54,702 nt of DNA from an uncultured Thermoplasmatales archaeon (GCA_964578185.1 CAZOBL010000002.1:15007-69708); one strand, 5' to 3'; positions 39,338 to 54,702 are shown, counted from the first letter of the stretch. Notes: a model not told the origin generated them from the sequence alone. Made by a program: numbers and translations.

Positions 39338-39385
39338 ATTAAGTAATAAATTATTTCAATCAAATTTTTATAGTATTAGTTAAAA

Positions 39386-40720
39386 ATGAAAATTTTACTT
39401 ATCCAGCCTTATCTTTCTAGAAGGCGAATTCAGATACATCCGCCTTTGGGCATAACTCATCTTGCTTCATGTTTAGAACTAGAGGGCCATAATGTTAGAA
39501 TCATTGATTGTTTGGCAATCAATGGTAAAATAGAAGATATTGAAAAAGAATTTAAGAATTTTAAACCAGATATTGTAGGCATTAGTTCTTCAACTGTACA
39601 AATCTATTACGTCTATTCTATCTTTTCATTAGTTAAGCGATTTAACCCAAATTGTTTAACGGTTATCGGAGGGCCTCACCCTTCTATTTTACCTCGTGAG
39701 ACATTAAGTGAGTGTAAGTATATTGATGTTGTTGTTAGAGGAGAAGGTGAACTTACTTTCGTTGACCTCATTAATACATTTGAAAAAAAAGGCCCAGATG
39801 GTTTTTGTGATGTTAGAGGCATAAGCTTTAGAAATGAAGAAAAGATAATCGAGAATAGAGAACGAGGGCTTATTGAAGATTTAGATAGTCTACCACTTCC
39901 TGCTTATCACTTATTACCGATGAAAAAATATATTGGAAAATATGTCACTTCTCCAACTAATAACTCCAAAGTTTCATATAATTATTGTAATATTTCCACC
40001 TCGAGAGGGTGCCCTTATAATTGTATTTTTTGCGCATCAAATGCCTTGTGGGGAAAAAAATTAAGAAAAAAGAGCGCTGAGCGCATTATTGAAGAGATAA
40101 ACCTTTTAAAAGAGTACAATGTAAAAATAATAAATTTTACAGATGATACGTTTCCTATTGATAAAAAAAGAACTAAAAAAATTTGTGAATTAATCCAAAA
40201 GGAAGATATTGATATTTTTTGGAACTGCATAACTAGAGTAGAATTGTTTAACAAGGAAATGGCTTCTTTATTCAATAAATCCAGATGTTGCGGGGTTGAA
40301 TTTGGAATCGAATCTGGTGTACAACAAACATTGGATTTTTTAAATAAAGGTTTTACTGTAAAAGACTCGATTACTGCTGTTAAAAACGCTAAAAAATATG
40401 ATTTAAGAACAGATAGTAATTTTATAATAGGAGTTCCTGGCGAAACAAAAGAGATGATCAATAAAACAATAAATTTTTCAAATTATCTAAACCTTGATTA
40501 TACAGATTTTACACTCTTAACTCCACTTCCTGGCACAAAGCTGTATAATATTGCAAAAGAACAAAACCTTTTTATTACAGAGGATTGGAGCAAGTATACT
40601 TTTTTTACACCGGTTATGAAAGTACCTGGTCTCTCTTCTTTTGATTTAAAATATTTCTTATTTAAAGCATATTTCAATAACCAATTCAATCAATTAAAAA
40701 ATAAATTAAAAGTTAACTGA
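39386..40720 (+). CDS. B12-binding-domain radical SAM protein (class B-like)
   Basis: MKILLIQPY...VGISSST...TVIGGPHPS, then STSRGCPYNCIFCAS. Confidence 0.82.
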   Translation: MKILLIQPYLSRRRIQIHPPLGITHLASCLELEGHNVRIIDCLAINGKIEDIEKEFKNFKPDIVGISSSTVQIYYVYSIFSLVKRFNPNCLTVIGGPHPSILPRETLSECKYIDVVVRGEGELTFVDLINTFEKKGPDGFCDVRGISFRNEEKIIENRERGLIEDLDSLPLPAYHLLPMKKYIGKYVTSPTNNSKVSYNYCNISTSRGCPYNCIFCASNALWGKKLRKKSAERIIEEINLLKEYNVKIINFTDDTFPIDKKRTKKICELIQKEDIDIFWNCITRVELFNKEMASLFNKSRCCGVEFGIESGVQQTLDFLNKGFTVKDSITAVKNAKKYDLRTDSNFIIGVPGETKEMINKTINFSNYLNLDYTDFTLLTPLPGTKLYNIAKEQNLFITEDWSKYTFFTPVMKVPGLSSFDLKYFLFKAYFNNQFNQLKNKLKVN

Positions 40721-40741
40721 CTATAAGTGATATTTTTAAAA

Positions 40742-42160
40742 TCACCTTTTCAATATCTTCTCCTTTATTGGTATTTTTTGGATTAAGTACTGATGTTTCC
40801 CTCTTTCAGTCCTTGGAATTTTTTCTACAAACTCAATACTTAATTTTGTATCCTTGCCGATTTTTTCTTCTATTCTTCTTTTTATTTTGTCACTATCATT
40901 TTGGCTGTATGAATCTCCTTTAACTATTTTTAAAAATAAATTATTTTTATCCTCTTGATGAAATTGAAATTGTTTTACATTTTCTAAAATATTGGCATGA
41001 ATATTAATTGCAGCAATAGGAATTATCCTATCGTCACTTGTAACAATGAAATCTTGTGATCTTCCCTGTATGTTTTTTAAAATAAAGTAATTCCTACCGC
41101 ATTGGCACTTTTCAGAATTATAAATTCCAACATCTCCCGTTTTGTATCTTATTAAAGGAAAAAGAAAATTCCTAAAGCCTGTTCCAACTATTTCTCCCAT
41201 TCCTCCGTCTTTTCCAACTGCTTTTCCGTAACCATCAACTAATTCGGTAATTCCATTTTGCGGAAAAAAATGATAATAATTATTATAACCACAACTTGAT
41301 GCAAAAGCAACTTGTTCAGTATGGCCATATATGTAAATCACTCTGCAATTAAAAACATCTTCAAGTAATTCATGTTGCCAATCATACAAATTTTCACCAG
41401 TACATAATATTGATTTAAGTGATTTAAAACCTTTAAGATTTTTATTTTTTATCTGTTGTGCAATCATTATTATAGAAGATGGATATGAAAGAATATATGA
41501 GGGTTTAAATTTTCTAATTATTTTGATATATTTTGGTAAATTTTTTTCACTTAAATTAAAAGATGATAAAGTTAAATTCCTTCCAAATAAAGATTTTTCC
41601 CAAATTTTTCCCCTATCTGATTGGGAAATTAAACCTTCTTTAATAATGATTGATTTGCTTGTTAAATTACAATTAACTTGATTCAATATTATTTTGAAAA
41701 AAGCAAGTTCTTTAATAAATGATATGGCTTTTTCTTCATAAATCCCAAGAGGTATACCTGTTGATCCTCCTGTTGTCATATAACTAAATTTATGTTCGGG
41801 ATAATTTTTTGCTTTTAATTCTTTAATATTTCTTCTTATGATTTCTTTATTGAGAAACGGTATTTTTTGCAAATCTTTCAAACTATGGATGTCTTCTGGT
41901 TTCAAATCTTTAGAATTAAATAATTTTCTGTAATACGGAACATTCTCATATGCATGATTCAACAATTCATTTAATTTTTTAAATTGGTATTCTTCTATTT
42001 GCTTTTCACTCCAGTATTGTGATTTTTTTATGAATTTATAAAATTCATTGAATGTTGAATAATTAAAAAGTATCATAAGAGCTGCAGGTGTTGCCGATGT
42101 AGCATAACTTGCTTTATTTTGTAAGTAACTGTGCAGGTGTTTTTTTAATTTATATCTCAT
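40742..42160 (-). CDS. Adenylate-forming ligase of the PaaK / coenzyme F390 synthetase / CapK family
   Basis: P-loop-like YMTTGGSTGIPLGIY, YGHTEQ, YKTGDVG, C-terminal RTERGKHQYL. Confidence 0.75.
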   Translation of the reverse strand: MRYKLKKHLHSYLQNKASYATSATPAALMILFNYSTFNEFYKFIKKSQYWSEKQIEEYQFKKLNELLNHAYENVPYYRKLFNSKDLKPEDIHSLKDLQKIPFLNKEIIRRNIKELKAKNYPEHKFSYMTTGGSTGIPLGIYEEKAISFIKELAFFKIILNQVNCNLTSKSIIIKEGLISQSDRGKIWEKSLFGRNLTLSSFNLSEKNLPKYIKIIRKFKPSYILSYPSSIIMIAQQIKNKNLKGFKSLKSILCTGENLYDWQHELLEDVFNCRVIYIYGHTEQVAFASSCGYNNYYHFFPQNGITELVDGYGKAVGKDGGMGEIVGTGFRNFLFPLIRYKTGDVGIYNSEKCQCGRNYFILKNIQGRSQDFIVTSDDRIIPIAAINIHANILENVKQFQFHQEDKNNLFLKIVKGDSYSQNDSDKIKRRIEEKIGKDTKLSIEFVEKIPRTERGKHQYLIQKIPIKEKILKR

Positions 42161-42362
42161 AAATATTTTTTTACCTCATTTTGAAATTATATAACCTTGT
42201 ATATATTTGAAAACAATACTATAATGTTGAGTCATTTCTTAATTTATTTGTTAAGACAACTAATTATTAATTTGAAAAGTTGCACTACTTAAAAATTTCT
42301 GCTAATATAACAAAACATTTATATATTAGCAAAACTTAATTATAAGATGGTGATAATTAAAC

Positions 42363-42428
42363 ATGGCAGTAGGCAGATCGTTACCCAGCGCGGCTCTTAT
42401 CTCTATTAACAAAGAGGAAGAAGAATAA
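42363..42428 (+). CDS. Candidate 21-aa small ORF (MAVGRSLPSAALISINKEEEE) in a GC-rich island between the ligase and YcaO genes; possible modified-peptide precursor or small RNA
   Basis: GGTGAT (42349-42354) lies 8 nt upstream of the ATG. TATA-like TTTATATAT is at 42318-42326. An oligo-T tract follows at about 42444-42449. 42363-42404 is about 55% GC in otherwise very AT-rich spacer. Confidence 0.35.
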   Translation: MAVGRSLPSAALISINKEEEE

Positions 42429-42487
42429 ACAAAAATATTCAATTTTTTATTATATTTTCATTTAATATAAAATATTAAGTATTGTTT

Positions 42488-44248
42488 TTAAGAGTTAAAA
42501 AAACTGTCACTTATTTTTTTAATCAAATCTGTATAATATTTATCAGTTTCAAAATTTGGTTCTTCTGGGTTAAATGGATTTTTTGAAATATCAAAATTAA
42601 AAAGATTTTTTTCGTTACAGTTATCTAATATCATAGTTTCTTTAGAGATACACTTTCTTTCTTTTAGTAGTTTTATTACTTTTAGATATTTCTTTGCCTT
42701 TTCATTTTTGTTAATTGAGTTATATAAAATAGCAAGAATTTCATAAAGATTAATAGTTTGTCTAAAGAAATTTTCTCTTATTAGTGTAAAGATATAAGAA
42801 GAGGGTTCTTTTGACAAAAAATCTTCGATATTATTTATCAATATTTTTATCTTTTTTTCATTTTTTATCCATTTGTCATTTGTAGCATAAAGATAAAAAT
42901 CCTTAATTCCATAAAAATAATCTACTCTTTCACTGATCTTTGACTCTTTTGTAAAACCTTTTATAAATGGGTCAAAATCATTAGATATGGGTGGAATAAT
43001 GACTCTAACAACTGGAAAACCTATAATGTTATGAGTATAATCAACTGTAAGCATATCCCAATTATTTCTTTTACATACAGAAATTAGTTCATTACAATCA
43101 TCTAATGAGTCATTGTTATAAATGCTCTTAAGATTATTATAGGAAATTATTTCTCCATTATCTAAAAAATCAAGATCACTATAATATTCATAATTTCTAA
43201 TAAGATAACGGAATGGGTCCATATTCCCAGAATATTTGTTCCCAATTATCTCAGTCCAACATTTGTATATCAAATCAGTTTCCTTGCGCATCATAAGTTC
43301 TTTCTCATCACCTGTATCTAAAGTCTGCATGTACTCTGTAAAACATCTGAGTATTGCTTCCTCCAGATTAACATGAGATGCACATTCAATTCTCTTGTAA
43401 TATTGCCTTTTCTTAAGTGGATTATCTTTATCTTTAATGTTGTTATTAATAAAAACTAACCCAATTGTTGGTATATTATTTCCCATTGTAAAATCCTTAA
43501 TTACGGTTTCTATATTGAGTGATTTAAACATTTCAATATAATCAAGAATTTTCTCATTTGAAATTGTCTTTTGATCAATCGTAGAGCATTTCATTCTTTT
43601 AAGAAGAACCTTTACAACAGCGTATCTTTCAAATATCTCACATGTTGCTTGAGCAATAGCTTCTTCAATTGTATTTCCTGCTGCAAGACCATTAGACCCA
43701 CTTATTGTTTCAATAACTCTAAGAGGAATACTTTTGAATTTTTTATCAGTCAATGAAAAAGAGTCTAAGCTTTTATTTAAAAGATTAGACTTTTGATACA
43801 TCTTGTGTTTTTCTCTTGAAAGATTTCCGCCAAAATATATAGAGTTTAAATCTTCAAAATTTATCACATCATCTTCAGTTTTTTTAAAATTTTTTAGAAA
43901 TTTCCTATCAAAGAGATCATCTAATAGCTTTCTATATCTATAGGAGTCCTTAGGAATAGGAATATTTTGAAAGAAAAACATAGTCGCAGAAAATCTTTCA
44001 ACCATCTCTGCAAATGCTGATGCTTTTGATAACAATGAAGTTGTACCTTTTCCATAAGTTGAAAAATTCAATTCTTTTATTTTGCTTTCACCAGTATATA
44101 ATTCAGATTTACCTTTACCAATCTTGTTTTCTTTATATAATAAATTTAGATCAATTCTCTTGAAACCATCCGATATTCTTTTAATAGTATTCTCTGGCTT
44201 GTCACATTTGTAAGTTTCAAATGTTTTCGGCGATTTTTTTAAAATCAT
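42488..44248 (-). CDS. YcaO domain protein (ATP-dependent peptide backbone-modifying enzyme family) with helical C-terminal extension
   Basis: YGKGTTSLLSKASAFAEMVERFS and SGSNGLAAGNTIEEAIAQATCEIFERYAV are canonical YcaO ATP/Mg motifs. 586 aa. No adjacent TfuA or E1-like partner. Confidence 0.85.
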   Translation of the reverse strand: MILKKSPKTFETYKCDKPENTIKRISDGFKRIDLNLLYKENKIGKGKSELYTGESKIKELNFSTYGKGTTSLLSKASAFAEMVERFSATMFFFQNIPIPKDSYRYRKLLDDLFDRKFLKNFKKTEDDVINFEDLNSIYFGGNLSREKHKMYQKSNLLNKSLDSFSLTDKKFKSIPLRVIETISGSNGLAAGNTIEEAIAQATCEIFERYAVVKVLLKRMKCSTIDQKTISNEKILDYIEMFKSLNIETVIKDFTMGNNIPTIGLVFINNNIKDKDNPLKKRQYYKRIECASHVNLEEAILRCFTEYMQTLDTGDEKELMMRKETDLIYKCWTEIIGNKYSGNMDPFRYLIRNYEYYSDLDFLDNGEIISYNNLKSIYNNDSLDDCNELISVCKRNNWDMLTVDYTHNIIGFPVVRVIIPPISNDFDPFIKGFTKESKISERVDYFYGIKDFYLYATNDKWIKNEKKIKILINNIEDFLSKEPSSYIFTLIRENFFRQTINLYEILAILYNSINKNEKAKKYLKVIKLLKERKCISKETMILDNCNEKNLFNFDISKNPFNPEEPNFETDKYYTDLIKKISDSFFNS

Positions 44249-44408
44249 TTTATCACTGAATATAGATGGTTACTTTTATAGTTAGGTCATTGGTTAAAAC
44301 TTTATACCTCCTTTTTATTCAACCCCTGTATTTTTATATGAAGTTTTGAGTTGAGATCTATATAAACTTCCTAAACGAATATTCCCTTTTCAAAAATCTT
44401 TGAAAAGT

Positions 44409-44459
44409 TATCAGTCGCATGCTACATTGGAATTTATCAGCCGGCAATGCGATAGTGCC
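44409..44459 (+). promoter_or_regulatory. Copy 1 of a conserved 51-nt GC-rich upstream element (candidate operator/UAS)
   Basis: TATCAGTCGCATGCTACATTGGAATTTATCAGCCGGCAATGCGATAGTGCC. It matches 46223-46273 at about 45 of 51 positions. It sits about 75 nt upstream of ATG 44535 and upstream of a TATA-like TTTTTATAAAT. Confidence 0.6.
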
Positions 44460-44534
44460 TTAATTGTAAAGAAAAACTTAAGTATTATTAAAATAAATAT
44501 TTTTTTATAAATAAAAATAAATAAGGTTATTAAA

Positions 44535-46145
44535 ATGAAAATATTTGCTATATTGATCATATTTTTTTTATTCTTTAGTAGTGTTATGGTTTCAGCATAC
44601 GTAGAAAACAACGAATATAAACTAGAAAAATTAGAGGATAACAATTTCAAAGAAATTAGAATAGCTATGTTAGGTGAAGAAATTCTTGAGATGTCAGCGA
44701 AATTTTTATTCGTGCGGGTTCTAGATGGATATACCTGGAAAGTAGGAAATAACAATTATACTTTTAAAGTAACAGAAATCTATGATGAAGACATAATGAA
44801 TGGTGAGTTAAATACTGATAATTATGATGTTTTGTTAGTTCCTGGTAGTGTAGGCGCAGATGAATCACAAGTTAAAGGGTTATTTTCTTTTTTGCCAAGG
44901 GTGAAAAGATGGAAAAATTATATAGTGGATTTTATTAAAGATGGAGGAGGGTACACAGGTTCATGTGGTGCAACAAATTTAATAACCGAGTACGGTAAAA
45001 AACCAGAATCGCCAATCGAAAGAAACATTGATAGAAGTAGCTTAGATGTTTCTGCTGTTAAAACTTGGTATGATAGTGCAAGTATGCCTCTAATGGGAGA
45101 ATTTTTAGGTTTCTCTCCTTCTAGAGTTGGAGCTTATAACTACTTTTATTGCATGTATCAACCCGACGTAGAAGTTGAAGATGTCGAAGATTTTGATATT
45201 TGCTTATTACATGTTGGTTGTCCGATGGATATTAGTTTGAATACTTCCCATCCTTTATTTGATGATTATCAAAAAGATACATGCCGTGTTTTATGGGCTG
45301 CTGGACCTGCTTTTGTTACACCAAAAAAATCAGATAGAACATTAAGTATTATGGCAAGATATCCAGTTGAGGAATTATCTGAAAATGTTTCAACACAAAT
45401 ACATGCTTGGGATTATACCGGTGGAATTAGAGGTCTTATGAAAGGCCTATTTAAATCGATAAAAAATGGTGAAGGTTTAATGGGGGCATATTATAATGCT
45501 GGAGATTGGAAACTAACAAATGAAGTAATAAACATAAATTTCTCCAATAAACCCTGTATGACAGCTGAGATCTATCCAAATGAGAATAAAGGAAGAATTT
45601 TTCTTAATGCTTTGCATCCTGAATATCCTGTTTGGTGGGGTGGCCGTATTAAAGAAATGGAAGATACAAATGATAATTGCTTATCCAAGGGTCTTTATAA
45701 ATGGGTAGATATGACCCCAATAGAAGAAACTGTTGAAGATGAAGAAACCTATAATTGGTGGATGGTAAGAAGAGAAGTTGCGTGGGTTGCAAAGATACCA
45801 GATGATGATCTGCCCCCTGTTTATGGTCCAAGTCAGGTCTGTGATTTTGAGACTAATCCTGATTCTGAAGTCTTTACAATAATGGGTAATTCTGAAACAT
45901 CTGAAGGAACTATATCTTTAGATTTATATTACAGATATTCAGAAAATAATTCTTATTGGTCTGAATGGACTTTGTTTGATACTGATTTCGATGATTCTGA
46001 TGGTTGGAATTGGGAATTTACTTCACCAAATGGTTCTGGTTATTATCAATTTTATAGTATTAGAAATGTAGAACATCAAGATACTATTGAAACTGAGAAA
46101 GTTCCACCAGGAGCAGATACTCAGGTTTGTGTTGATTTAACTTAA
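44535..46145 (+). CDS. Secreted protein with class I glutamine-amidotransferase-like (BPL_N-type) N-terminal domain
   Basis: Signal peptide MKIFAILIIFFLFFSSVMVSA. YDVLLVPGS...FIKDGGGYTGSCGA resembles the GATase1-like nucleophile-elbow region. Weak call. Confidence 0.35.
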   Translation: MKIFAILIIFFLFFSSVMVSAYVENNEYKLEKLEDNNFKEIRIAMLGEEILEMSAKFLFVRVLDGYTWKVGNNNYTFKVTEIYDEDIMNGELNTDNYDVLLVPGSVGADESQVKGLFSFLPRVKRWKNYIVDFIKDGGGYTGSCGATNLITEYGKKPESPIERNIDRSSLDVSAVKTWYDSASMPLMGEFLGFSPSRVGAYNYFYCMYQPDVEVEDVEDFDICLLHVGCPMDISLNTSHPLFDDYQKDTCRVLWAAGPAFVTPKKSDRTLSIMARYPVEELSENVSTQIHAWDYTGGIRGLMKGLFKSIKNGEGLMGAYYNAGDWKLTNEVININFSNKPCMTAEIYPNENKGRIFLNALHPEYPVWWGGRIKEMEDTNDNCLSKGLYKWVDMTPIEETVEDEETYNWWMVRREVAWVAKIPDDDLPPVYGPSQVCDFETNPDSEVFTIMGNSETSEGTISLDLYYRYSENNSYWSEWTLFDTDFDDSDGWNWEFTSPNGSGYYQFYSIRNVEHQDTIETEKVPPGADTQVCVDLT

Positions 46146-46222: not shown

Positions 46223-46273
46223 TATCAGTCGCATGCGACATTAGAATTTACCAGCCGACAATGCGACAGTACC
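46223..46273 (+). promoter_or_regulatory. Copy 2 of the 51-nt element; contains a perfect 12-bp palindrome GTCGCATGCGAC and a second ATGCGAC half-site 28 nt downstream
   Basis: TATCAGTCGCATGCGACATTAGAATTTACCAGCCGACAATGCGACAGTACC. The palindrome is at 46228-46239 and the second ATGCGAC at 46261-46267. It sits about 20 nt upstream of the TATA-like box of the DUF134 operon. Confidence 0.6.
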
Positions 46274-46284
46274 CCAAATTTAGC

Positions 46285-46300
46285 GAAAACTATTTATAAT
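46285..46300 (+). promoter_or_regulatory. Putative archaeal BRE/TATA promoter of the DUF134 operon
   Basis: CGAAAAC followed by TATTTATAAT, about 40 nt upstream of ATG 46338. AGGATG lies in the predicted short leader. Confidence 0.35.
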
Positions 46301-46337
46301 ATGTCTCATATGAGTAATATATTAGGATGTAATTTAC

Positions 46338-46664
46338 ATGCCTGGACATGGTCGCAGACGCGGAAGATGCCGTGGAAGAAGACGTGGTAGAAGATGGATA
46401 GAACAACCCTTTGAACCACAACGTTTTCAACCACAATATGGTCAAAACCCTCAGAAACAAATAATTCTAACAATAGAAGAACTGGAAATTCTGCGGTTAA
46501 TAGAACTAGAAGGACTTACGCAGGAAGAAGCAGCAGCCATGATGGGTGTTTCCAGGAAAACACTATGGAAGGATTTGCACAAAGCACGTAAAAAAATTGC
46601 AGAAGCACTAGTAAATGGTTACACGATCCATGTCAAAGGTGGGGATTATATCCAAAGGAAATAA
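46338..46664 (+). CDS. DUF134 (UPF0251) family predicted DNA-binding protein with an arginine-rich N-terminus
   Basis: LTIEELEILRLIELEGLTQEEAAAMMGVSRKTLWKDLHKARKKIAEAL is the sigma-70 region-4-like HTH typical of DUF134. N-terminus is MPGHGRRRGRCRGRRRGRRW. Confidence 0.85.
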   Translation: MPGHGRRRGRCRGRRRGRRWIEQPFEPQRFQPQYGQNPQKQIILTIEELEILRLIELEGLTQEEAAAMMGVSRKTLWKDLHKARKKIAEALVNGYTIHVKGGDYIQRK

Positions 46665-46686
46665 AAATATATGAGGTGAAAAAAAT

Positions 46687-47055
46687 ATGCCAGGTGGAGA
46701 TAGAACAGGCCCTGAAGGATTTGGTCCAAGAACAGGTCGAGCACTAGGATATTGCAGTGGTTACGATAGCCCAGGTTACACTAAAGGTGCCCCTCGTGGT
46801 GGACGAGGATACGGCCGTGGCTGGGGCCGAGGCTTCGGACGCGGTTTTGGACGTGGTCGAGGCTTTTGGCGTAGAGGATACTACCCTGAGCCATACCATG
46901 AACCAGCACCAAGTTACAGACCAGCATATCCTCAACCCACTAGAGATGAAGAAAAAAAATATCTAGAGGATATGATCAAAAACCTTGAAGAAGAACTAAA
47001 ATCTATGAAAGACCGTCTTCAGGAACTAAATAAAGAAAAAAAATCTCCTGAATAA
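46687..47055 (+). CDS. DUF5320 family protein (Gly/Arg-rich N-terminal half, C-terminal coiled coil)
   Basis: MPGGDRTGPEGFGPRTGRALGYCSG..., RGG/RGF run GRGYGRGWGRGFGRGFGRGRGFWRRGYY, then EEKKYLEDMIKNLEEELKSMKDRLQELNKEK. Confidence 0.8.
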   Translation: MPGGDRTGPEGFGPRTGRALGYCSGYDSPGYTKGAPRGGRGYGRGWGRGFGRGFGRGRGFWRRGYYPEPYHEPAPSYRPAYPQPTRDEEKKYLEDMIKNLEEELKSMKDRLQELNKEKKSPE

Positions 47056-47138
47056 AAAAAGGAGATTTTTCTCTATCATATTTTTTATAATGTATATCTG
47101 CATTCCAAGCTAAGACTTCAAAAAAAGATGTGATTTAT

Positions 47139-47954
47139 ATGATTCAAAAGCAGAAAAAACAACCAAATGTTAAAAAAAACCTAGAAAAAGTTAAACATAA
47201 AATAGTGGTTTTAAGTGGAAAAGGCGGGGTAGGTAAAAGCACTGTTGCCGCAAATCTTGCGGTAACATTATCCGCTAAAGGTTACAAGGTAGGTTTACTA
47301 GACAGTGACCTACACGGTCCAAGCATCCCCAAAATTGTAGGTATCGAAGATGAAAAAGTACGACCTTCAAAAAATGGTATATCACCTGTTTTAACTCATA
47401 ACGATCTGAAAGTAATGTCTATGGGTTTACTCTTAGAAGATCGCGATTCTCCAGTGATCTGGCGTGGACCTATGAAGATGGGTGCTATACGTCAACTACT
47501 TGGAGAGGTAGATTGGGGTGAACTGGATTTTTTAATAATCGATTTGCCCCCTGGAACGGGTGATGAACCACTTAGTATCGCTCAACTTATAGATGATATA
47601 TCAGGCGCGATTGTTGTTACAACTCCTCAGGATGTTGCAATAGTAAGTGTAAGAAAAAGTATTAATTTCGTGAAGAAACTAAACATGAATTTACTTGGTG
47701 TTGTAGAAAACATGAGTGGTTTTACATGTCCAAATTGTGGTAAAAAAGTAGATATTTTTAAGACAGGTGGCGGTAAAAAGGCAGCTGAGGATTTTAAGAT
47801 ACCATATCTAGGAAGCATTCCTCTTGACCCGGAAATTGTACAAACAGGGGACTCGGGAAATAGTTTTATGGCAAAAAACAAGGATAAAAATACTGCTGAC
47901 TCTTTTAACAGGATTGTTAAAAATATTGAAGAAGTTTTAGGAGGTGAAAAATAA
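47139..47954 (+). CDS. Mrp/NBP35 (ApbC) family iron-sulfur cluster carrier ATPase
   Basis: Deviant Walker A VLSGKGGVGKST, DLPPGTGDE, and CPNCGKKVDIF (CxxC cluster-bridging motif). The ORF opens at GTG 47130. Confidence 0.88.
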   Translation: MIQKQKKQPNVKKNLEKVKHKIVVLSGKGGVGKSTVAANLAVTLSAKGYKVGLLDSDLHGPSIPKIVGIEDEKVRPSKNGISPVLTHNDLKVMSMGLLLEDRDSPVIWRGPMKMGAIRQLLGEVDWGELDFLIIDLPPGTGDEPLSIAQLIDDISGAIVVTTPQDVAIVSVRKSINFVKKLNMNLLGVVENMSGFTCPNCGKKVDIFKTGGGKKAAEDFKIPYLGSIPLDPEIVQTGDSGNSFMAKNKDKNTADSFNRIVKNIEEVLGGEK

Positions 47955-47957
47955 ATT

Positions 47958-48191
47958 ATGCCTGGTGGAGATGGAACTGGTCCTGATGGTAGCGGTCCTG
48001 TAGCAGGCCGTGGCCGAGGCCGAGGGCAAGGCCACCGTAGCGGCGGTCGTGGACTTGGTGGTGGAACTGCTGCGGGTCCAGGTGGTGAATGCCGCTGTCC
48101 AAATTGCGGTCATCGTGAACCACATCAGCTTGGTCAGCCTTGTTACTCGAAAAAATGTCCTAAATGCGGCGCTCCGATGACAAGAGCATGA
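47958..48191 (+). CDS. Small DUF5320-like protein with C-terminal CxxC...CxxC zinc-ribbon
   Basis: MPGGDGTGPDGSGPVAGRGRGRGQG shares its N-terminal motif with 46687. CRCPNCGHREPHQLGQPCYSKKCPKCGAPM. GGAGGTGA lies 10 nt upstream. Confidence 0.75.
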   Translation: MPGGDGTGPDGSGPVAGRGRGRGQGHRSGGRGLGGGTAAGPGGECRCPNCGHREPHQLGQPCYSKKCPKCGAPMTRA

Positions 48192-48271
48192 TAAAAATTA
48201 AATAACCCTTGTAAATAAAAAAAAGACGAAGATTTATATATGATATATATGTGAAGGTGATTGGCTTTATT

Positions 48272-48655
48272 ATGAAAATATGTGTTTCATCGAAAGGAGA
48301 TAATTTAGATGCAGAGGTAGATCCACGTTTTGGTCGTTGTAAATATTTTTTGATTATTGACCCAGATTCTTGGGATTTTGAATCAGTTGACAATGAAAGT
48401 GTTATGGCTAGTGGTGGAGCAGGAATTCAAGCAGCGCAAAATGTTGCAGATAAAGGATGTAGTATTGCAATTACTGGTAATATGGGTCCTAATGCTTTTA
48501 GAACTCTTGAAGCTGCAGGTATTGACGTGTATACTGGTGCAAGTGGAACAGTAAAGGATGCAGTTGAAAGTTTTAAAAAAGGTGAACTTAAAAAATCAGA
48601 AAACCCTACCGTTGGGGGTCATCATGGTATGGGTAGAATGTCTGGAGGTAGATAA
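48272..48655 (+). CDS. NifX/NifB-C-terminal-like (dinitrogenase FeMo-cofactor biosynthesis domain, Nitro_FeMo-Co) protein 1
   Basis: MKICVSSKGDNLDAEVDPRFGRCKYFLIID...GAGIQAAQNVADKGCSIAITGNMGPNAFRTLEAAGIDVY. ATG 48272 is preferred to GTG 48251; GGTGAT lies 10 nt upstream. Confidence 0.82.
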   Translation: MKICVSSKGDNLDAEVDPRFGRCKYFLIIDPDSWDFESVDNESVMASGGAGIQAAQNVADKGCSIAITGNMGPNAFRTLEAAGIDVYTGASGTVKDAVESFKKGELKKSENPTVGGHHGMGRMSGGR

Positions 48656-48659
48656 AAAA

Positions 48660-49046
48660 ATGAAAATTGGTATACCCTCGCAGGGTGATAGAGGTTTAGA
48701 GGAAAAAGTTGGTGCACATTTTGGACGCGTCCCAACATATACTATTGTTGATTTAGAGTCAAATGATGTTAAAGTTGTTCCAAATACAAGTCATCATATG
48801 GGTGGTAGTGGTGATCCACCTGAGATTATGAAAAAAGAAGGGGTATGCGCTATGGTATGTCAAGGTCTTGGACGCCGAGCTATCAGTCTTTTTGAACAAA
48901 TTGGAATAGATGTATATATAGGGGCAACAGGTACAGTCAAAGATGCAGTTGATGCTTTTAAAAATGATAAACTTCAGAAAGCAAATGAGGGCAACGCCTG
49001 TCAACAGCATGCTTTTCGTGGTCAAGGAAAACATCATCATCATTAG
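48660..49046 (+). CDS. NifX/NifB-C-terminal-like protein 2, with a natural C-terminal His4 tail
   Basis: MKIGIPSQGDRGLEEKVGAHFGRVPTYTIVD...MVCQGLGRRAISLFEQIGIDVY...GKHHHH-stop. Internal ATG 48660 is chosen because the longer ORF overlaps the upstream gene. Confidence 0.82.
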   Translation: MKIGIPSQGDRGLEEKVGAHFGRVPTYTIVDLESNDVKVVPNTSHHMGGSGDPPEIMKKEGVCAMVCQGLGRRAISLFEQIGIDVYIGATGTVKDAVDAFKNDKLQKANEGNACQQHAFRGQGKHHHH

Positions 49047-49089
49047 AGAAATCCAGCATAAAATAATTCTTTATTTTTTTGGGATTTAT

Positions 49090-49953
49090 ATGAAAACACA
49101 TCTAGATTGCATACCTTGTTTTGTAAAACAGTCTCTTGAAGCTGCACGTATGGCTTCAGATGATCCATGTGTTCAGGAAAAAGTTTTAAAAGAGGTTATG
49201 AAACATCTTCAAAGCATTTCTTTTGAAGACTCTCCACCAGAACTCTCCAGAGAAGTTCATCGCATTATTAGAGATATTACCAACAATAATGATCCTTATA
49301 AAAAAGTTAAAAATGAGTCAAATGAGAAAATAAAAAAAATTTTTAACCATCTAAAAAAACAAGTATCTGAGTCAGATGACCCGCTTTTAACAGCTATTAA
49401 ACTTGCTATTGTGGGAAACGTTATTGATTTTGGAACAATGAACCGTTTTAATGTTGATGAAATGATAGAGCATGCTCTTGAGCGTGATTTTGATGATAGA
49501 GATTACCCTCTTTTTAAAAACACTCTTAAAGATGCGGAAACTGTTCTTTTTTTAGCGGATAACACAGGGGAGATTTTTTTTGATAAACTCCTCTTAGAAA
49601 AACTAGAAAAAAGGGGTAAAACTATTACCTATGTTGTAAAACAAAACCCGATTATAAATGATGCATTACTTTATGATGTAGAGTATGCGGGTATTGACAA
49701 AATTGCAGATGTAATAACTTATGACAACGGTCAGACAATTTCAACACCGGGTATTGTAATGAATTACGCATCAGATGAGTTTAAAAAAGAATTTAATGAA
49801 TCTGATATGGTACTATCTAAAGGTCAGGGCAACTATGAAGGTTTAAGTGATGTAGATCGTCGTGTGTTTTTTTTACTTGTTGCAAAATGCCCGCTTGTAG
49901 CCAAGGATATCGGCTCAAATGTAGGTAAACTTATATTGAAGGTGAATAAATGA
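49090..49953 (+). CDS. DUF89 (ARMT1-like, damage-control phosphatase family) protein
   Basis: MKTHLDCIPCFVKQSLEAAR..., DPYKKVK, FLADNTGEIFFDKLL, SKGQGNYEGL. ATG 49090 is chosen over the overlapping upstream extension. Confidence 0.8.
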   Translation: MKTHLDCIPCFVKQSLEAARMASDDPCVQEKVLKEVMKHLQSISFEDSPPELSREVHRIIRDITNNNDPYKKVKNESNEKIKKIFNHLKKQVSESDDPLLTAIKLAIVGNVIDFGTMNRFNVDEMIEHALERDFDDRDYPLFKNTLKDAETVLFLADNTGEIFFDKLLLEKLEKRGKTITYVVKQNPIINDALLYDVEYAGIDKIADVITYDNGQTISTPGIVMNYASDEFKKEFNESDMVLSKGQGNYEGLSDVDRRVFFLLVAKCPLVAKDIGSNVGKLILKVNK

Positions 49954-50783
49954 TTATATCTATTGCAAGTGGAAAGGGTGGCACGGGTAAAACAACGGTT
50001 GCTACAAACCTTGCACTGTGCTTGGATAAAGCGCAGTTTTTTGATTGTGATGTTGAAGAACCCAATTCAAATATTTTTCTAAATGCAGAAATTGACAACG
50101 TTGAAAATGTTTCATCTGACATACCAGAAATCGATAAGAATAAATGCACTTTTTGTGGTAGATGTGCAGAATTCTGCCGCTATAACGCTCTTGCTGTTGT
50201 AAAAGAAAATGTTGTAGTGTTCCCAGAGCTTTGTCATTCATGCAGGGGATGTCAAATTGTGTGTCCTGAGGATGCCGTGGGTTTTAAACCACGTTTCTTA
50301 GGAAAAATCGAATCAGGAAAATCTGGTAAAATTGATTTTTATCAGGGTGTTTTAAATGTTGCAGAAATCCAGGCAGTACCAGTTATAAAAGCGCTTAAGA
50401 AAAAAATAAGATCTGACCGGGATGTCATTCTGGATGCACCCGCAGGTAACTCCTGTCCAATGGTTGAAACCGTAATAGATACTGACTACTGCATTCTTGT
50501 CACTGAGGCCACTCCTTTTGGTCTTAACGATTTAAAAATCGCTGTTGAAATACTGCGTGATTTAAAAATTCCAATGGGTGTTATTATAAACCGTGATGGA
50601 ACAGGATACAAAGATGTTGAAGTTTTTTGCACAAATGAACATATCCCTATTATTTTAAAAATACCATATGATGAAAAAATCGCAAAATTATATTCCAGAG
50701 GTATTCCTTTTGTAAAAAGGATGCCTGTGTGGTGTAAAAAATTTTTAGAGGTATACAACAAGATTTCCAAGGAGGTGAAATAA
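49950..50783 (+). CDS. MinD/CooC-type P-loop ATPase with inserted 2x[4Fe-4S] ferredoxin domain (COG1149-like), copy 1
   Basis: IASGKGGTGKTTVATNLA, CTFCGRCAEFCRYNAL, CHSCRGCQIVCPEDAV, ILDAPAG. The start overlaps the DUF89 stop (ATGA). Confidence 0.85.
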   Translation: MIISIASGKGGTGKTTVATNLALCLDKAQFFDCDVEEPNSNIFLNAEIDNVENVSSDIPEIDKNKCTFCGRCAEFCRYNALAVVKENVVVFPELCHSCRGCQIVCPEDAVGFKPRFLGKIESGKSGKIDFYQGVLNVAEIQAVPVIKALKKKIRSDRDVILDAPAGNSCPMVETVIDTDYCILVTEATPFGLNDLKIAVEILRDLKIPMGVIINRDGTGYKDVEVFCTNEHIPIILKIPYDEKIAKLYSRGIPFVKRMPVWCKKFLEVYNKISKEVK

Positions 50784-51650
50784 ATCAAAGAGTTAACATT
50801 GATAAGCGGTAAAGGTGGTACAGGTAAAACTAGTATAACCGGTTGTTTTGCATCACTTGCACGAAACTCAGTTCTTGCAGATTGTGATGTAGACGCTGCA
50901 AATCTTCACCTGATTCTGCATCCAGATATTAAAAAAACAATTGGTTTTCATGGTTTAGATATTGCATCTGTAGATTCTGACAAATGCAAGCGGTGTGGAG
51001 AATGTGTGAAACATTGTCAGTTTGATGCAATTGATGAAAATATAAATATTATTAAAAGCAACTGTGAAGGCTGCGGTGTATGTGAACTTGTATGCCCACA
51101 TGATGCAATATCTATGGTGAAACGCAATTCTGGTTTTTTATATATTTCAGATACACGTTTTGGACCTATGGTTCATGCTCGTTTGACCCCTGGTGAGGAA
51201 GCATCGGGTAAACTTATAACTTTAGTTCGTAAAAATGCAAATAAAATTGCTGTGGATACAAACAAAGACTATGTTATTGTAGACGGTCCCCCTGGTATAG
51301 GCTGTCCTGTAATTTCTTCTATTACAGGTGTAGATATGGTGTTAGCGGTAACTGAGCCTACTATGTCTGCAGTGCATGACCTTGAAAGAGTACTCGGAGT
51401 AGCAATTCACTTTCAGATACCTGCAATGGTATGTATTAATAAATATGATTTAAATAAAGAAAACACTCAAAAAATTGAACAATATTGTACTAAACAAGAC
51501 ATACCTGTTATTGGAAAAATCAAATACGACAAAGTTTTTACAGATGCAATGGTAGATGGTAGAAATGTGGTTGAATATTCACCTGATTGTGAGGTTTCAA
51601 TTAAAATAAAAAAAATGTGGGATGAAGTTAAAAAAAATTTAGAAAAGTAA
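50784..51650 (+). CDS. MinD/CooC-type P-loop ATPase with inserted ferredoxin domain, copy 2 (start uncertain: ATC 50784 or TTG 50799)
   Basis: (IKELTL)ISGKGGTGKTSITGCFA, CKRCGECVKHCQFDAI, CEGCGVCELVCPHDAI, VDGPPGIGCP. GGAGGTGA at 50771-50778. Confidence 0.82.
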   Translation: MKELTLISGKGGTGKTSITGCFASLARNSVLADCDVDAANLHLILHPDIKKTIGFHGLDIASVDSDKCKRCGECVKHCQFDAIDENINIIKSNCEGCGVCELVCPHDAISMVKRNSGFLYISDTRFGPMVHARLTPGEEASGKLITLVRKNANKIAVDTNKDYVIVDGPPGIGCPVISSITGVDMVLAVTEPTMSAVHDLERVLGVAIHFQIPAMVCINKYDLNKENTQKIEQYCTKQDIPVIGKIKYDKVFTDAMVDGRNVVEYSPDCEVSIKIKKMWDEVKKNLEK

Positions 51651-51679
51651 AGAAGATATACAACTAGGTTGGATTATAT

Positions 51680-52018
51680 ATGAAACATGTTCATTATACT
51701 GATGTTGAGTTAGAAACACCAGATGAAAAAGGATTAAAAGATGTAAAACTACGCTGGCTTATAAGTAAAAAAGATGGTGCTGAAAACTTTGCAATGAGGC
51801 TTTTTGAAGTAAAACCCGGTGGATATACACCACTTCATCAACATGAATGGGAACATGAAGTATTTATCCTAGAAGGCAGGGGGGTTACAAAAACAAAAGA
51901 ACAAGAAGAAGCATTCAAAGAAGGTGACGTATTATTTGTACCATCAATGCAATACCATCAATTTGTAAACACCGGTAAAAAAACTTTAAAATTCCTGTGT
52001 TTAATACCATACAAATAA
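51680..52018 (+). CDS. Cupin domain protein
   Basis: GGYTPLHQHEWEHEVFILEGRG ... VLFVPSMQYHQFVNTG (cupin motifs 1 and 2). 112 aa. Confidence 0.8.
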   Translation: MKHVHYTDVELETPDEKGLKDVKLRWLISKKDGAENFAMRLFEVKPGGYTPLHQHEWEHEVFILEGRGVTKTKEQEEAFKEGDVLFVPSMQYHQFVNTGKKTLKFLCLIPYK

Positions 52019-52150
52019 AAAGACGTTACATATTTTCCTTGATATTATATATTTTTAAAAAATTCTGCGCTTATAAATAATAGGGTTTTCAAAGGAAATC
52101 ATTATAAATACTAATTATATTTATTTTGTTAACAAAAACCACGAGGGGAT

Positions 52151-54702
52151 TTGGGAATCCGGGATGCAAAAACTCTAAGTGTAAGGTTAAATGTAATCAT
52201 AGCATTTCTTATATATATATTAGTTTTAAATATATTGTTTTTTTCGAGTATAGCTTCAGCATCAATAGCCGAATCATCATTTAGTATATCAGAGCCGATC
52301 ATTCTTGATAGTTCAGCAAATCCAATTAAAGTGACACCTGGCGACTTAATGAATTTTTCAGCAACAATTTTTGATTTACATGGTATAGATACAGTGCAAG
52401 CAAAAATTGAACACGAAAAAGGCTACGATTTAATAAATCTAGATATAGATGAAGGATCAAATATTTTTGGAAAATGGAGTGGAACATGGAAAGTTCATGA
52501 TACACTAGCAAAAAAATATAACACATTTTTAACTGCTTATTCAAAATCAGGATTAAAATCTTCTAGCATAATTAATTGGTATGATCCAGCACCATGGTGG
52601 AATATAAATTGGGGTTTTCGTAAGATAATAACATTAAACAGTAGTTATGTTGTTAGCGATCAAACTAATTTTCCAGTTCTCATATCTATTACTGACACTG
52701 ATCTTAGGGACGACGCTCAAAACGATGGAGATGACATCGCATTTACTGATAGTAGTGGAAATCAACTTGATCATGAAATAGACGAATTCAATAATGCCAC
52801 TGGGGAGCTACTTGCGTGGGTAAATGTAACAAGTCTAACCAGTGGGTCCGATACAGAACTCTACATGTATTATAACAATCCAAGTTGCAGCAGTCAGGAA
52901 AATGCTGCAGATTTATGGTCTAGTTATTCAATGGTTTATCATCTTAATGAACCATCAGGTATTTCTGGTGCTGATTCTGTTTCTGATAGCACCGGTAACA
53001 CTGGGGGGACTCCATCAGTTGGATTAAGTTTCGGAGAAACAGGTAAAATTGGTAACTGTACTGATTTTTCATCAGGTACTGGTATTAATTGTGGAACTTT
53101 AGGTTCTCCTTTATTAACTGCTGATACAACTATTTCTTTTTGGATATATGCAACTAGTTATTCTTCTCCGTCAAGACAGAATCCTTTCGATCATTCATAT
53201 GGTGGATGGGGTACCATGACAATTGAAACCAACAGCAGAATAAGTTGGTTTTTTGGCAGTAATGGCGGAGATAACAGCCCTTATGGGCAACATTCATCGA
53301 ATAATTTGATGGCAAATGGTGAATGGATATGGGTTACAGCCGTAAGAGACGATACAGCAAAAACATATTCTTGGTATAAAAATGGAGCTTCTTTGAACAG
53401 CGACTCTTACACAGCGTCTTATCCAAATATTCAAAATCAGGTTTTCACAATCGGAGATGGATATGTTAACCCCATCAATGCCAAAATGGACGAGTTTCGT
53501 GTTTCAACTGTTCCCCGATCTGCAAATTGGATAGAAACAGAATACAATAACATTATGAATGCTAATGATGGTGGATTTTTCACTGTTGGGGAAGAAGAAA
53601 TTGCAATACCAACACAACCAACGCTTAATACACCTGCAAATAATAGTTACATTCAGGATACAACTCCTACTTTTGATTGGGATTCAAGTGATAATGCACA
53701 AAACTATACTCTTTTAGTTGATGATGAATCAGATCTTACAGATGGTGACGAGTGGATTAATTACAGTTTTGATTCTTCTACAACAAGTAACACTACACCA
53801 TCAGCTAAAGCTCTATCTGAGGGTATATGGTATTGGCAGGTAGTTGCAAATAATTCAAATGGGCAAAACAGATCAGCAAAAAGAAATTTTATTGTAGATA
53901 CAACAGGTCCAAATGCAACTTCTTTACTCTTGCCCGCAGATAACAATAATACCGCAAATAATCAAATAACTTTCAGTTGGAATACAGCAAATGACAATAC
54001 AACAAACACATCACAAGTATCGGGAATAAAAGAATACGAATTATGGATAGATGATAACTCCTTATTTTCCTCTCCAACCTTAACTAACACCTCTAGTACA
54101 TCTTCACAACAAACAGTTGAAGGTATAACGTATTGGAAAATACGGGCATGGGACAACGCAGGAAACCCAGGCCAGTTCTCTGAGACACACCAACTCAATG
54201 CCTTTGATTTTTCTTTAAGCCTAAATTCTAATACTATGCAGTTAATGAAAGGCGAAACTCAAAGCTTGACATTAACAATAAATAAATTATATTCAGGAAG
54301 TGAAGACGAACAAGTAAACCTATCTTACTCATGGATTGGAACTGAACCATCAGGGGTAACTGTATCTTTTGATTCTACAACAGTAAATGCATCCAACGAT
54401 ACCAGTATGGATTTTGAAATCGGTGATAACGCGACAACCGGAACATATACATGTAGAATCACCGGTCGATGGCAAGGATACAATAGAACAACTGATGCTG
54501 AGTTGACAACATCAGGTATGCTTTTTTCAATGGATGCATACCCGCAAACAATTTTTCTAAAAAGAGATGATCAAGAAACCTCAACAGTATCAATAGATTT
54601 TGATTTAGGCGCTCTAGAAGATGTTTCTTTATCTGGCAATTGGGTTGCAACAACACCTACTGGAGTAACTGCTGGACTAAGTGTCAACTCTGGCACTCCC
54701 TC
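52151..54702 (+). CDS. Large secreted DUF2341 + LamG (concanavalin-A-like) + repeated Ig/Fn3-like module surface protein; 3' partial. Not in the supplied ORF track because no stop occurs before the window end.
   Basis: I translated by hand a frame that is open from the stop at 52130-52132 to 54702. TTG 52151 follows GAGGGGA. Signal peptide is LNVIIAFLIYILVLNILFFSSIASA. DUF2341 signature: PWWNINWGFRKIITLN...FPVLISI...DIAFTDSSGNQLDHEIDEF...ELLAWVNV...LYMYYNN. LamG-like: ISFWIYA...GEWIWVTAVRD...MDEFRVS. Confidence 0.8.
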   Translation, partial: MGIRDAKTLSVRLNVIIAFLIYILVLNILFFSSIASASIAESSFSISEPIILDSSANPIKVTPGDLMNFSATIFDLHGIDTVQAKIEHEKGYDLINLDIDEGSNIFGKWSGTWKVHDTLAKKYNTFLTAYSKSGLKSSSIINWYDPAPWWNINWGFRKIITLNSSYVVSDQTNFPVLISITDTDLRDDAQNDGDDIAFTDSSGNQLDHEIDEFNNATGELLAWVNVTSLTSGSDTELYMYYNNPSCSSQENAADLWSSYSMVYHLNEPSGISGADSVSDSTGNTGGTPSVGLSFGETGKIGNCTDFSSGTGINCGTLGSPLLTADTTISFWIYATSYSSPSRQNPFDHSYGGWGTMTIETNSRISWFFGSNGGDNSPYGQHSSNNLMANGEWIWVTAVRDDTAKTYSWYKNGASLNSDSYTASYPNIQNQVFTIGDGYVNPINAKMDEFRVSTVPRSANWIETEYNNIMNANDGGFFTVGEEEIAIPTQPTLNTPANNSYIQDTTPTFDWDSSDNAQNYTLLVDDESDLTDGDEWINYSFDSSTTSNTTPSAKALSEGIWYWQVVANNSNGQNRSAKRNFIVDTTGPNATSLLLPADNNNTANNQITFSWNTANDNTTNTSQVSGIKEYELWIDDNSLFSSPTLTNTSSTSSQQTVEGITYWKIRAWDNAGNPGQFSETHQLNAFDFSLSLNSNTMQLMKGETQSLTLTINKLYSGSEDEQVNLSYSWIGTEPSGVTVSFDSTTVNASNDTSMDFEIGDNATTGTYTCRITGRWQGYNRTTDAELTTSGMLFSMDAYPQTIFLKRDDQETSTVSIDFDLGALEDVSLSGNWVATTPTGVTAGLSVNSGTP

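Follow-up and report, generated by a model that had tools for sequence, protein, structure and literature searches.

The window analysed here, a stretch of 54,702 nucleotides (nt) from an uncultured Thermoplasmatales archaeon (CAZOBL010000002.1:15007-69708), contains at positions 46338-52018 of its plus strand an array of ten genes, g1 to g10, that combines an Mrp-type iron-sulfur (Fe-S) carrier ATPase, two small NifX-like proteins and two MinD-like ATPases bearing ferredoxin domains with DUF134, DUF5320-type, DUF89 and cupin proteins. Archaeal markers in the window are an AglB/STT3-like protein and a geranylgeranyl reductase-like protein, and the nearest g8 homologues that carry a name belong to Thermoplasmatota metagenome-assembled genomes. 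The genes are as follows:

46338-46664 (+): g1, DUF134 protein with a sigma-70 region-4-like helix-turn-helix (HTH); Pfam DUF134 5.7e-25, Sigma70_r4_2 1.1e-9
46687-47055 (+): g2, DUF5320 protein; Pfam 1.4e-29, 103.6 bits, profile positions 1-99
47130-47954 (+): g3, Mrp/NBP35-type Fe-S carrier ATPase; Pfam ParA/NUBPL 8.8e-105
47958-48191 (+): g4, small protein rich in Gly and Arg that combines the N-terminal motif of DUF5320 with a zinc ribbon; DUF5320 20.5 bits, positions 1-48, below cut-off
48272-48655 (+): g5, single-domain Nitro_FeMo-Co protein of the ORP/MTH1175 type, Orp8-like; Pfam 9.6e-27
48660-49046 (+): g6, single-domain Nitro_FeMo-Co protein of the PH0822/TM1290 type; Pfam 7.3e-19
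49090-49953 (+): g7, protein of the DUF89/ARMT1-like metal-dependent phosphatase family; Pfam 6e-71, 239.6 bits
49950-50783 (+): g8, MinD-like SIMIBI ATPase with an inserted 2x[4Fe-4S] ferredoxin, Orp3/Orp4-like paralogue A; CbiA/ParA and two Fer4 matches
50784-51650 (+): g9, MinD-like ATPase with a 2x[4Fe-4S] insert, paralogue B; CbiA/ParA and two Fer4 matches
51680-52018 (+): g10, small cupin; Pfam Cupin_2 2.3e-17

All ten open reading frames (ORFs) were found at these coordinates and in one direction, as the original prediction, made from the DNA alone, had described them, and each of the domains it named was borne out by Pfam search, with g4 remaining under the DUF5320 (PF17253) gathering threshold of 27 bits. 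Reading of the DNA most likely places the starts of g5, g6 and g7 at the ATG codons at 48272, 48660 and 49090; with these, the gaps from g1 to g10 measure 22, 74 (or 83, with the alternative g3 start at ATG 47139), 3, 80, 4, 43, -4, 0 and 29 nt, which fits the earlier account of 0-83 nt of spacing, an overlap (ATGA) at 49950 and two genes that abut at 50783/50784. The start of g9 is probably a non-canonical ATC (50784-50786) that abuts the end of g8: a strong Shine-Dalgarno-like AGGAGGTGA ends 5 nt before it, the orthologue at a related locus (L001) has GTG in its place, and the first canonical start, TTG at 50799, would cost most of the strand preceding the P-loop. The gaps before g3 (74-83 nt) and g5 (80 nt) hold TATA-like A/T runs, so that more than one transcript is possible. 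No transfer RNA genes or Rfam families were found in the window, and a scan for sigma-70 promoters and intrinsic terminators, bacterial signals that are not applicable to an archaeon, gave matches at chance level.

The carrier ATPase g3 has the deviant Walker A motif GKGGVGKS and a CPNC (CXXC) motif, and its PDB relatives are Cfd1 and ApbC-type carriers. Its top NCBIfam model is MrpORP (NF041136; length 365, cut-off 450 bits), matched with 386.6 bits over model positions 1-250, against 246 bits for ApbC; the C-terminal third of this model, its Di-Nase end, is matched by the separate g5 and g6, the latter at positions 265-363. The best solved relative of g5 is Desulfovibrio gigas orange protein (ORP; PDB 2WFB, 'putative uncharacterized protein ORP'; 9.4e-21, residues 2-112), followed by MTH1175 at 1.3e-20 and then TM1816, and its Nitro_FeMo-Co domain (PF02579) is extended by a Gly-rich C-terminal stub of 16 residues (GGHHGMGRMSGGR). 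The second protein of this kind, g6, shares 39% identity with g5, has a C-terminal tail rich in His and is closest to PH0822 and TM1290 (PDB match 2YX6, 1.1e-18).

The two MinD-like ATPases g8 and g9 are 28% identical and 49% similar, and both contain a 2x[4Fe-4S] ferredoxin domain as an insert following switch I, an architecture for which a PDB search returned no solved structure. A near-invariant Cys is found seven residues after the Walker B Asp in 68 of 70 A-type and 71 of 72 B-type proteins and is not shared by Mrp proteins; within the window it corresponds to C169 of g8 (~50454-50456) and is part of 'DGPPGIGCP' in g9. The same 7-residue spacing separates Asp125 and Cys132 in switch II of NifH, and the ferredoxin domain is inserted where, presumably, NifH bears its other cluster ligand. 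For that second ligand, Cys97, no equivalent was identified. Foldseek searches with an AlphaFold2 model of g8, which was calculated from a 15-sequence alignment and is of low confidence (predicted local distance difference test, pLDDT, 60), had MinD and FlhG at the top and similar values for ApbC, Cfd1, NifH, HypB and CooC (TM ~0.4-0.47); the predicted fold is placed in the SIMIBI MinD/FlhG/ApbC/NifH class only, MinD and NifH not being separated.

A profile of g8 homologues run against one-genome-per-species contigs yielded a set of 80 loci (L001-L080); more than 8000 homologues of g8 are found at 1e-10 or better, and 431 of the first 600 pattern matches in the genome-contig scan were confirmed relatives. 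The archaeal loci include Thermoplasmatota, Altiarchaeota, Bathyarchaeia, Methanosarcina, Methanothrix and, among Asgard archaea, Thor- and Heimdallarchaeota, and the bacterial ones Dehalococcoidia, Desulfobacterales, Syntrophobacterales, Clostridia, Planctomycetota, Omnitrophota, Acidobacteriota and others. Co-conservation was tabulated for the 38 loci flanked by 5 kb or more on each side, by tblastn with the ten window proteins and counting genes within 6 kb. By this measure g9 is present in 38/38 loci, any NifX-like gene in 36/38 (g5 type 34, g6 type 29), Mrp in 24/38 (63%), DUF5320-type genes in 15/38 (39%), DUF134 in 13/38 (34%), DUF89 in 7/38 (18%; 16/80 overall) and the cupin in 0/38. 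The g9 gene directly adjoins g8 on its downstream side in 79 of the 80 loci, and does so on the same strand in all 38 that are fully flanked.

Because of these counts, the conserved unit is a five-gene core made of the two MinD-ferredoxin ATPases, Mrp and two NifX-like proteins, to which DUF134, DUF5320-type and DUF89 genes are accessories that vary by lineage; the ten co-conserved genes of the original prediction are thus reduced to about five. The cupin, which follows the MinD-ferredoxin pair in L001 and a further relative, L081, only, is ruled out as an integral component by co-occurrence and is a passenger confined to the close relatives of the window. The proposal that the genes travel together rather than lie side by side by chance is supported by the recurrence of the core in 80 loci from many phyla; moreover, the order g4-g10 is kept in L001 and the entire ten-gene order in L081, whose g8 is 67% identical and where a thioredoxin gene then follows.

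Genes that recur at up to 8 kb from the MinD-ferredoxin pair across the 80 loci encode an FmdB-type zinc ribbon (23 loci), a NifU_N/IscU-like scaffold (22), a metallo-beta-lactamase fold (14), DUF364/DUF4213 (11), pyridine nucleotide-disulfide oxidoreductase (8), DUF1847 (5) and DUF169 (4), in addition to the iron-homeostasis proteins Fur (8), FeoB (4) and DtxR (4). In 14 loci there is a small radical SAM protein, whose weak best matches are MoaA and a tungsten-cofactor maturase (58 bits against a cut-off of 284). No nitrogenase, carbon monoxide dehydrogenase (CODH), hydrogenase or division gene recurs among these neighbours, nor does any candidate client enzyme recur in the 80 related loci; as had been noted from the DNA, genes for nifHDK, the NifB core, CODH and hydrogenase were not found in the window either.

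The composition of the core matches that of the ORP complex of sulfate-reducing bacteria (Desulfovibrio vulgaris Hildenborough, D. alaskensis G20), which in D. vulgaris Hildenborough consists of Orp3, Orp4, Orp5, Orp8 (an ORP homologue) and Orp9, the latter being MrpORP (PMC6345978). Orp3 and Orp4 are paralogues with two [4Fe-4S] ferredoxin motifs each (PMC6345978) and a C-terminal amphipathic helix of the MinD kind. MrpORP consists of an Mrp/NBP35 domain, with a bridging [4Fe-4S] cluster on CXXC, and a Di-Nase domain carrying a 3Fe-4S cluster; it transfers clusters to Orp3 and Orp4 in vitro (PMC6345978, PMC8359166) and localises at a cell pole. Expression of the orp genes needs sigma-54 and the redox-sensing activator OrpR, and an archaeal origin has been proposed for the system. 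Among the homologous loci collected here, sigma-54 PAS activators adjoin the cluster in 12 bacterial ones, including Desulfobacterota, and 10 of these 15 activators have in their N-terminal PAS region a C-x8-C-x3-C motif with the spacing of C52/C61/C65 of OrpR; Mrp-like proteins of 434-440 residues in two loci would fit the size of the two-domain MrpORP, as judged by length alone. OrpR-linked clusters with orp gene content among the homologues therefore provide an indirect bridge to Desulfovibrio, and, since the ORP system is widespread, its presence in an anaerobic archaeon is not surprising.

Taken together, we regard it as reasonably probable that the cluster is an archaeal variant of the ORP system, engaged in holding, buffering and delivering Fe-S or metal-sulfide species under reducing conditions. 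The view that no function had been assigned to this combination of genes has to be given up, as the core is that of a named and experimentally studied system (PMC6345978, PMC8359166). A link to a defined pathway exists to the extent that there are a name and partial biochemistry, but the physiological role is still described as unclear, and our literature search found no functional work on ORP later than 2021. The general idea of a module for metal-sulfur handling stands, whereas that of a dedicated machine for a specific client lacks a co-occurring client.

Outside the core, g2 and g4 share an N-terminus (MPGGDRTGPEGFGP / MPGGDGTGPDGSGP) that had been pointed out before and is visible in the translations, although BLASTP with composition adjustment does not pick it up. 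In g2 a repeat of Gly, Arg and aromatic residues comes after this MPGGDxTGP motif, then a stretch rich in Pro and, at the C-terminus, a coiled-coil-like segment; g4 ends instead in a CxCPxCG...CPxCG zinc ribbon, and its orthologue from L006 reaches 27.9 bits against DUF5320, above the 27-bit cut-off. In many loci g4 orthologues directly precede the MinD-ferredoxin pair. With a profile search of higher sensitivity, DUF5320-type sequence, free or fused, is detected in 57 of the 80 loci, a count that low complexity may inflate.

In about 21 of the 80 loci a DUF5320-type tail, made of a Gly/Met/Arg-rich stretch and a coiled coil, is fused C-terminally to an ORP-type NifX domain, and five of six such fusions tested exceed both Pfam cut-offs (PF02579, PF17253). 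Some of them extend into a second, MrpORP-Di-Nase-like NifX domain that ends in CDH, or into a ferredoxin domain, and in L028 a NifX domain is fused to a g4-type Gly/Arg and zinc-ribbon module. Multi-domain fusions of the order NifX (ORP type)-DUF5320-NifX (Di-Nase type, ending CDH) or NifX-DUF5320-2x[4Fe-4S] ferredoxin are located at:

L027, 8456-9349
L047, 1170-2162
L040, 8389-9264

Because such tails are fused elsewhere, g2 and g4 can be understood as free-standing forms of the tail of a g5-type domain. The MPGGDxTGP motif is carried by 58 free-standing proteins in 38 loci and not by the fused versions, and may be a docking peptide.

A tail of related character is known from IssA (PF2025) of Pyrococcus furiosus, whose 70 C-terminal residues are Pro-rich and then cationic, aromatic and Gly-rich, and have been proposed to wrap anionic thioferrate (PMC5524996). 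The IssA tail contains 15 Gly, 7 cationic, 14 aromatic and 11 Pro residues (PMC5524996), and residues 31-85 of g2 contain 14 Gly, 11 Arg/Lys, 12 aromatic and 8 Pro. MTH1175, the relative that g5 matches almost as well as D. gigas ORP, has been placed in the IssA clade (PMC5524996); for g5 this link is one of similarity score. In Methanococcus voltae, the genes Mvol_0691 and Mvol_0692, annotated as 'cobyrinic acid a,c-diamide synthase' and predicted to have Fe-S motifs, lie between Mvol_0689 and Mvol_0693, both 'IssA-like', and proteomics found all four up 2.3-5.0-fold on pyrite, where the cells accumulate a thioferrate-like iron phase. The literature searched contained no mention of a connection between ORP, IssA and DUF5320, and nothing functional was found in it for DUF134 or DUF5320; the DUF5320 tails on ORP-type NifX domains are new here, as is the tie between ORP, IssA and DUF5320 by way of gene order and domain fusions.

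By homology with Desulfovibrio MrpORP, for which transfer to Orp3 and Orp4 was shown in vitro, g3 would use its CXXC motif to assemble a bridging [4Fe-4S] cluster and hand clusters on to g8 and g9, which, because of their invariant adjacency and of SIMIBI biology, may act as a nucleotide-dependent heterodimer. This pair would associate with g5 and g6 and, as shown for the relatives ORP, MrpORP's Di-Nase domain and IssA, g5 and g6 would hold labile, non-covalently or weakly bound metal-sulfide. The fusions and the composition of g2 and g4 suggest that they supply the tail function in trans, probably by binding the anionic metal-sulfide cargo or by tethering the complex. The HTH protein g1 would be the regulator, in place of the sigma-54/OrpR arrangement of Deltaproteobacteria, and g7 and g10 would each be an accessory or a passenger.

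In a broader form of this scheme, a single ancient machine, common to anaerobes at large, would store and mobilise iron sulfide, and ORP and IssA would both belong to it: NifX domains of the ORP/IssA type would nucleate an anionic, thioferrate-like species and DUF5320 tails, whether in cis or supplied in trans, would wrap it. With its ferredoxin insert at the place of the NifH cluster loop and its invariant switch-II Cys, the MinD-ferredoxin heterodimer would serve as a NifH-like, ATP-driven donor of low-potential electrons that reduces or releases Fe-S units, and Mrp would deliver these to apo-proteins. We put this forward tentatively, as a doubtful extension of the ORP assignment.

Several observations weigh against the assignment to the ORP system and should be set beside those in its favour. 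The score of g3 lies under the MrpORP cut-off, and the protein is a P-loop domain only, with neither a fused Di-Nase domain nor Cys residues in its N-terminus; g6 in turn has neither CxHFGHCE nor CDH, which are motifs of MrpORP's Di-Nase domain. The orthology of window proteins to Orp3, Orp4 and Orp5 is suggested by architecture, NCBIfam and PDB anchors and the OrpR-linked loci, not by alignment with DVU2103-2109. The likeness between g2 and the IssA tail is one of composition, not of alignment, and Mvol_0689-0693 is an apparent counterpart of the cluster by annotation and locus numbers rather than by alignment. In Desulfovibrio, altered morphology is the only phenotype of the ORP system and the authors of that work still call the role 'unclear', and the sequences do not reveal the kind of metal-sulfide that is carried.

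The phenotype leads to a different explanation, in which g8 and g9 attach to the membrane or the cell poles by means of amphipathic helices at their C-termini and help to position the division site, with the Fe-S proteins as redox-sensing accessories. Inactivation of OrpR in D. vulgaris causes morphological defects, orp products are described as putatively involved in septum positioning, MrpORP is polar and MinD-like C-terminal amphipathic helices are reported for Orp3 and Orp4; MinD and FlhG are also the best matches of the g8 model, but this ranking comes from a model with a pLDDT of 60, in which ApbC, Cfd1, NifH and HypB score nearly equally. The morphology, moreover, could be an indirect effect of Fe-S deficiency, the system spans lineages with very different division machineries, and no ftsZ, minC/E, cdv or similar gene recurs near the 80 loci, where the neighbours are Fe-S and iron genes. 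A role in division or positioning therefore appears quite unlikely to us. The line taken in the original prediction, put here in the form that the cluster builds a complex Mo/W/Cu-S cofactor, or one like FeMo-co (iron-molybdenum cofactor), for a client enzyme encoded elsewhere, draws on the binding of FeMo-co precursors by NifX/NafY/NifB-type domains, on the Mo-Cu-S cluster of D. gigas ORP, the closest solved relative of g5, and on two of the recurrent neighbours, the radical SAM proteins with their faint likeness to MoaA and a tungsten-cofactor maturase (14 loci) and the 'heavy-metal chelation' family DUF364/DUF4213 (11 loci). These radical SAM matches are, however, far under the family cut-offs, there is no candidate client in the window and none recurs in the 80 loci, and the Mo-Cu cluster of ORP is reported to arise by protein-assisted chemistry and is of unproven physiological relevance; we consider a heterometal cofactor unlikely.

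The third explanation, that several unrelated small operons are merely adjacent and co-directional in a compact genome, could appeal to the TATA-like runs before g3 and g5, to the restriction of the cupin to one lineage and to the minority of loci with DUF89. It is at odds with a core order that is kept across Archaea and Bacteria, with the whole ten-gene order in L081 and with the fusions (NifX-DUF5320, NifX-DUF5320-NifX and Mrp-NifX) that tie the components together. For the core, chance adjacency is largely refuted by this conservation and these fusions, and for the array we hold it to be extremely improbable. Accordingly, an ORP-system variant that handles Fe-S or metal-sulfide species is the interpretation we prefer.

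Upstream of the array, the following elements were recognised:

46294-46314 (+): candidate archaeal core promoter, with a TATA-like TTTATAA (46294-46300) and a palindrome, CTCATATGAG (46305-46314), ~40 nt before the g1 ATG at 46338
44409-44459 (+): copy 1 of a 51-nt direct repeat
46223-46273 (+): copy 2 of the same repeat, 45/51 identical; two copies only in the window

The segment 46290-46337 is ~93% identical to L081 6316-6366 and L082 32-82, while the g8 proteins are only 67% identical; the palindrome CTCATATGAG by itself is not rarer than chance in the window, and a promoter function of 46294-46314 is inferred only. The 51-nt repeat holds a 12-bp palindrome, GTCGCATGCGAC (with the form GTCGCATGC(G/T)AC across copies), together with repeated ATGCGAC (ATGCGA) half-sites, and for the two sub-motifs searched ~0.1-0.2 chance matches are expected. 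Its copies flank a 536-residue ORF and each lies ~65-75 nt upstream of a plus-strand start codon, an arrangement that could reflect either a shared regulatory site or the scar of an insertion or duplication. The repeat was not found in L081, the closest relative, and GTCGCATGCGAC, once considered as a DUF134 operator, was demoted for its lack of conservation there.

Other genes of the window surround the cluster on both sides:

44535-46145 (+): the 536-residue ORF, with an N-terminal hydrophobic, signal-like segment and no Pfam or NCBIfam match
38114-46145: block of transglutaminase-like, B12-binding radical SAM, AMP-binding-like and YcaO genes and the 536-residue ORF, not present in syntenic L081 (4977-6366)
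20885-22204, 28865-30511 and 39386-40720: radical SAM genes, two of them with B12-binding domains
52133-54702 (+): ORF of more than 856 residues, with an N-terminal hydrophobic segment, which runs past the window end

The 536-residue ORF was ruled out as a client or partner of the cluster, no homologue of it being present in any of the 80 loci. In L081 the order is M32 peptidase, an Exo_endo_phos gene, a 167-residue gene, HAD hydrolase and then directly DUF134. The YcaO, radical SAM and AMP-binding genes of the block might form a peptide-modification set, and the ORF at 52133-54702 probably encodes a large surface protein.

The window itself adds no new kind of system; it is the comparative work that ties together the ORP complex, IssA-type NifX proteins and the DUF5320 family. 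How Fe-S is stored, buffered and delivered in strict anaerobes is poorly understood, and ORP proteins have been without a settled function since 2011; the genes conserved around the cluster belong to iron and Fe-S homeostasis, and neither division genes nor a client enzyme are among them. If the combined ORP-IssA machine exists, it would provide a function for DUF5320, for the Orp3/Orp4 family with its more than 8000 relatives and possibly for DUF134. Tractable methanogens, among them the one whose Mvol_0689-0693 genes are induced by pyrite, would lend themselves to genetic study of what the cluster does.

Compared with known protein families, g7 has a full-length Pfam match to the DUF89/ARMT1-like damage-control phosphatases, with AF1104 (2FFJ) and PH1575 (2G8L) as PDB relatives, but falls short of the NCBIfam equivalog models, scoring 197.3 bits on NF040824 (cut-off 440) and 180.4 bits on NF041594 (cut-off 500). 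The deviant Walker A, the CXXC motif and the strong Cfd1/ApbC structure matches of g3 are those of Mrp/NBP35/ApbC/Cfd1 carriers, whereas its place within a dedicated cluster, beside its presumed targets, is not typical of them. With MinD, FlhG and NifH, g8 and g9 share the deviant Walker A and the SIMIBI class, and with NifH the Cys at Asp +7, a putative ligand equivalent; they differ from all three by the 2x[4Fe-4S] ferredoxin insert that follows switch I. The PF02579 fold of g5 and g6 is also that of NifX, NafY and the NifB C-terminal domain, carriers that hold complex Fe-S species non-covalently, but there are no nif genes in the window or among the recurrent neighbours at the 80 loci, and both proteins are closest to non-nif proteins from structural genomics. 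As in IssA, an IPR003731/Nitro_FeMo-Co domain (g5) is accompanied by a Gly/Arg/aromatic and Pro-rich module; in IssA this tail is on the same polypeptide, whereas g5 has a stub only and the tail-like modules are the separate g2 and g4, which add the MPGGDxTGP motif and a coiled coil or zinc ribbon.

Finally, the two divergent sigma-54 operons of the Desulfovibrio ORP system contrast with a single co-directional array in the window, where no Sigma54_activat protein is present among the 30 ORFs, a subset of the total, that were scanned with Pfam, and where a DUF134 HTH protein takes the place of OrpR. Unlike its Desulfovibrio counterpart, the Mrp protein g3 is a bare P-loop domain, with no Di-Nase fusion and no N-terminal Cys motif, and the array adds two DUF5320-type proteins, a DUF89 protein and a cupin in an archaeal host. 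Despite these differences, the cluster has in common with the Desulfovibrio system two adjacent MinD-like ATPases with two [4Fe-4S] motifs each (g8 and g9), an ORP-type single-domain Nitro_FeMo-Co protein (g5), a further domain of the Di-Nase type, an Mrp protein whose best match is MrpORP and a restriction to anaerobes.

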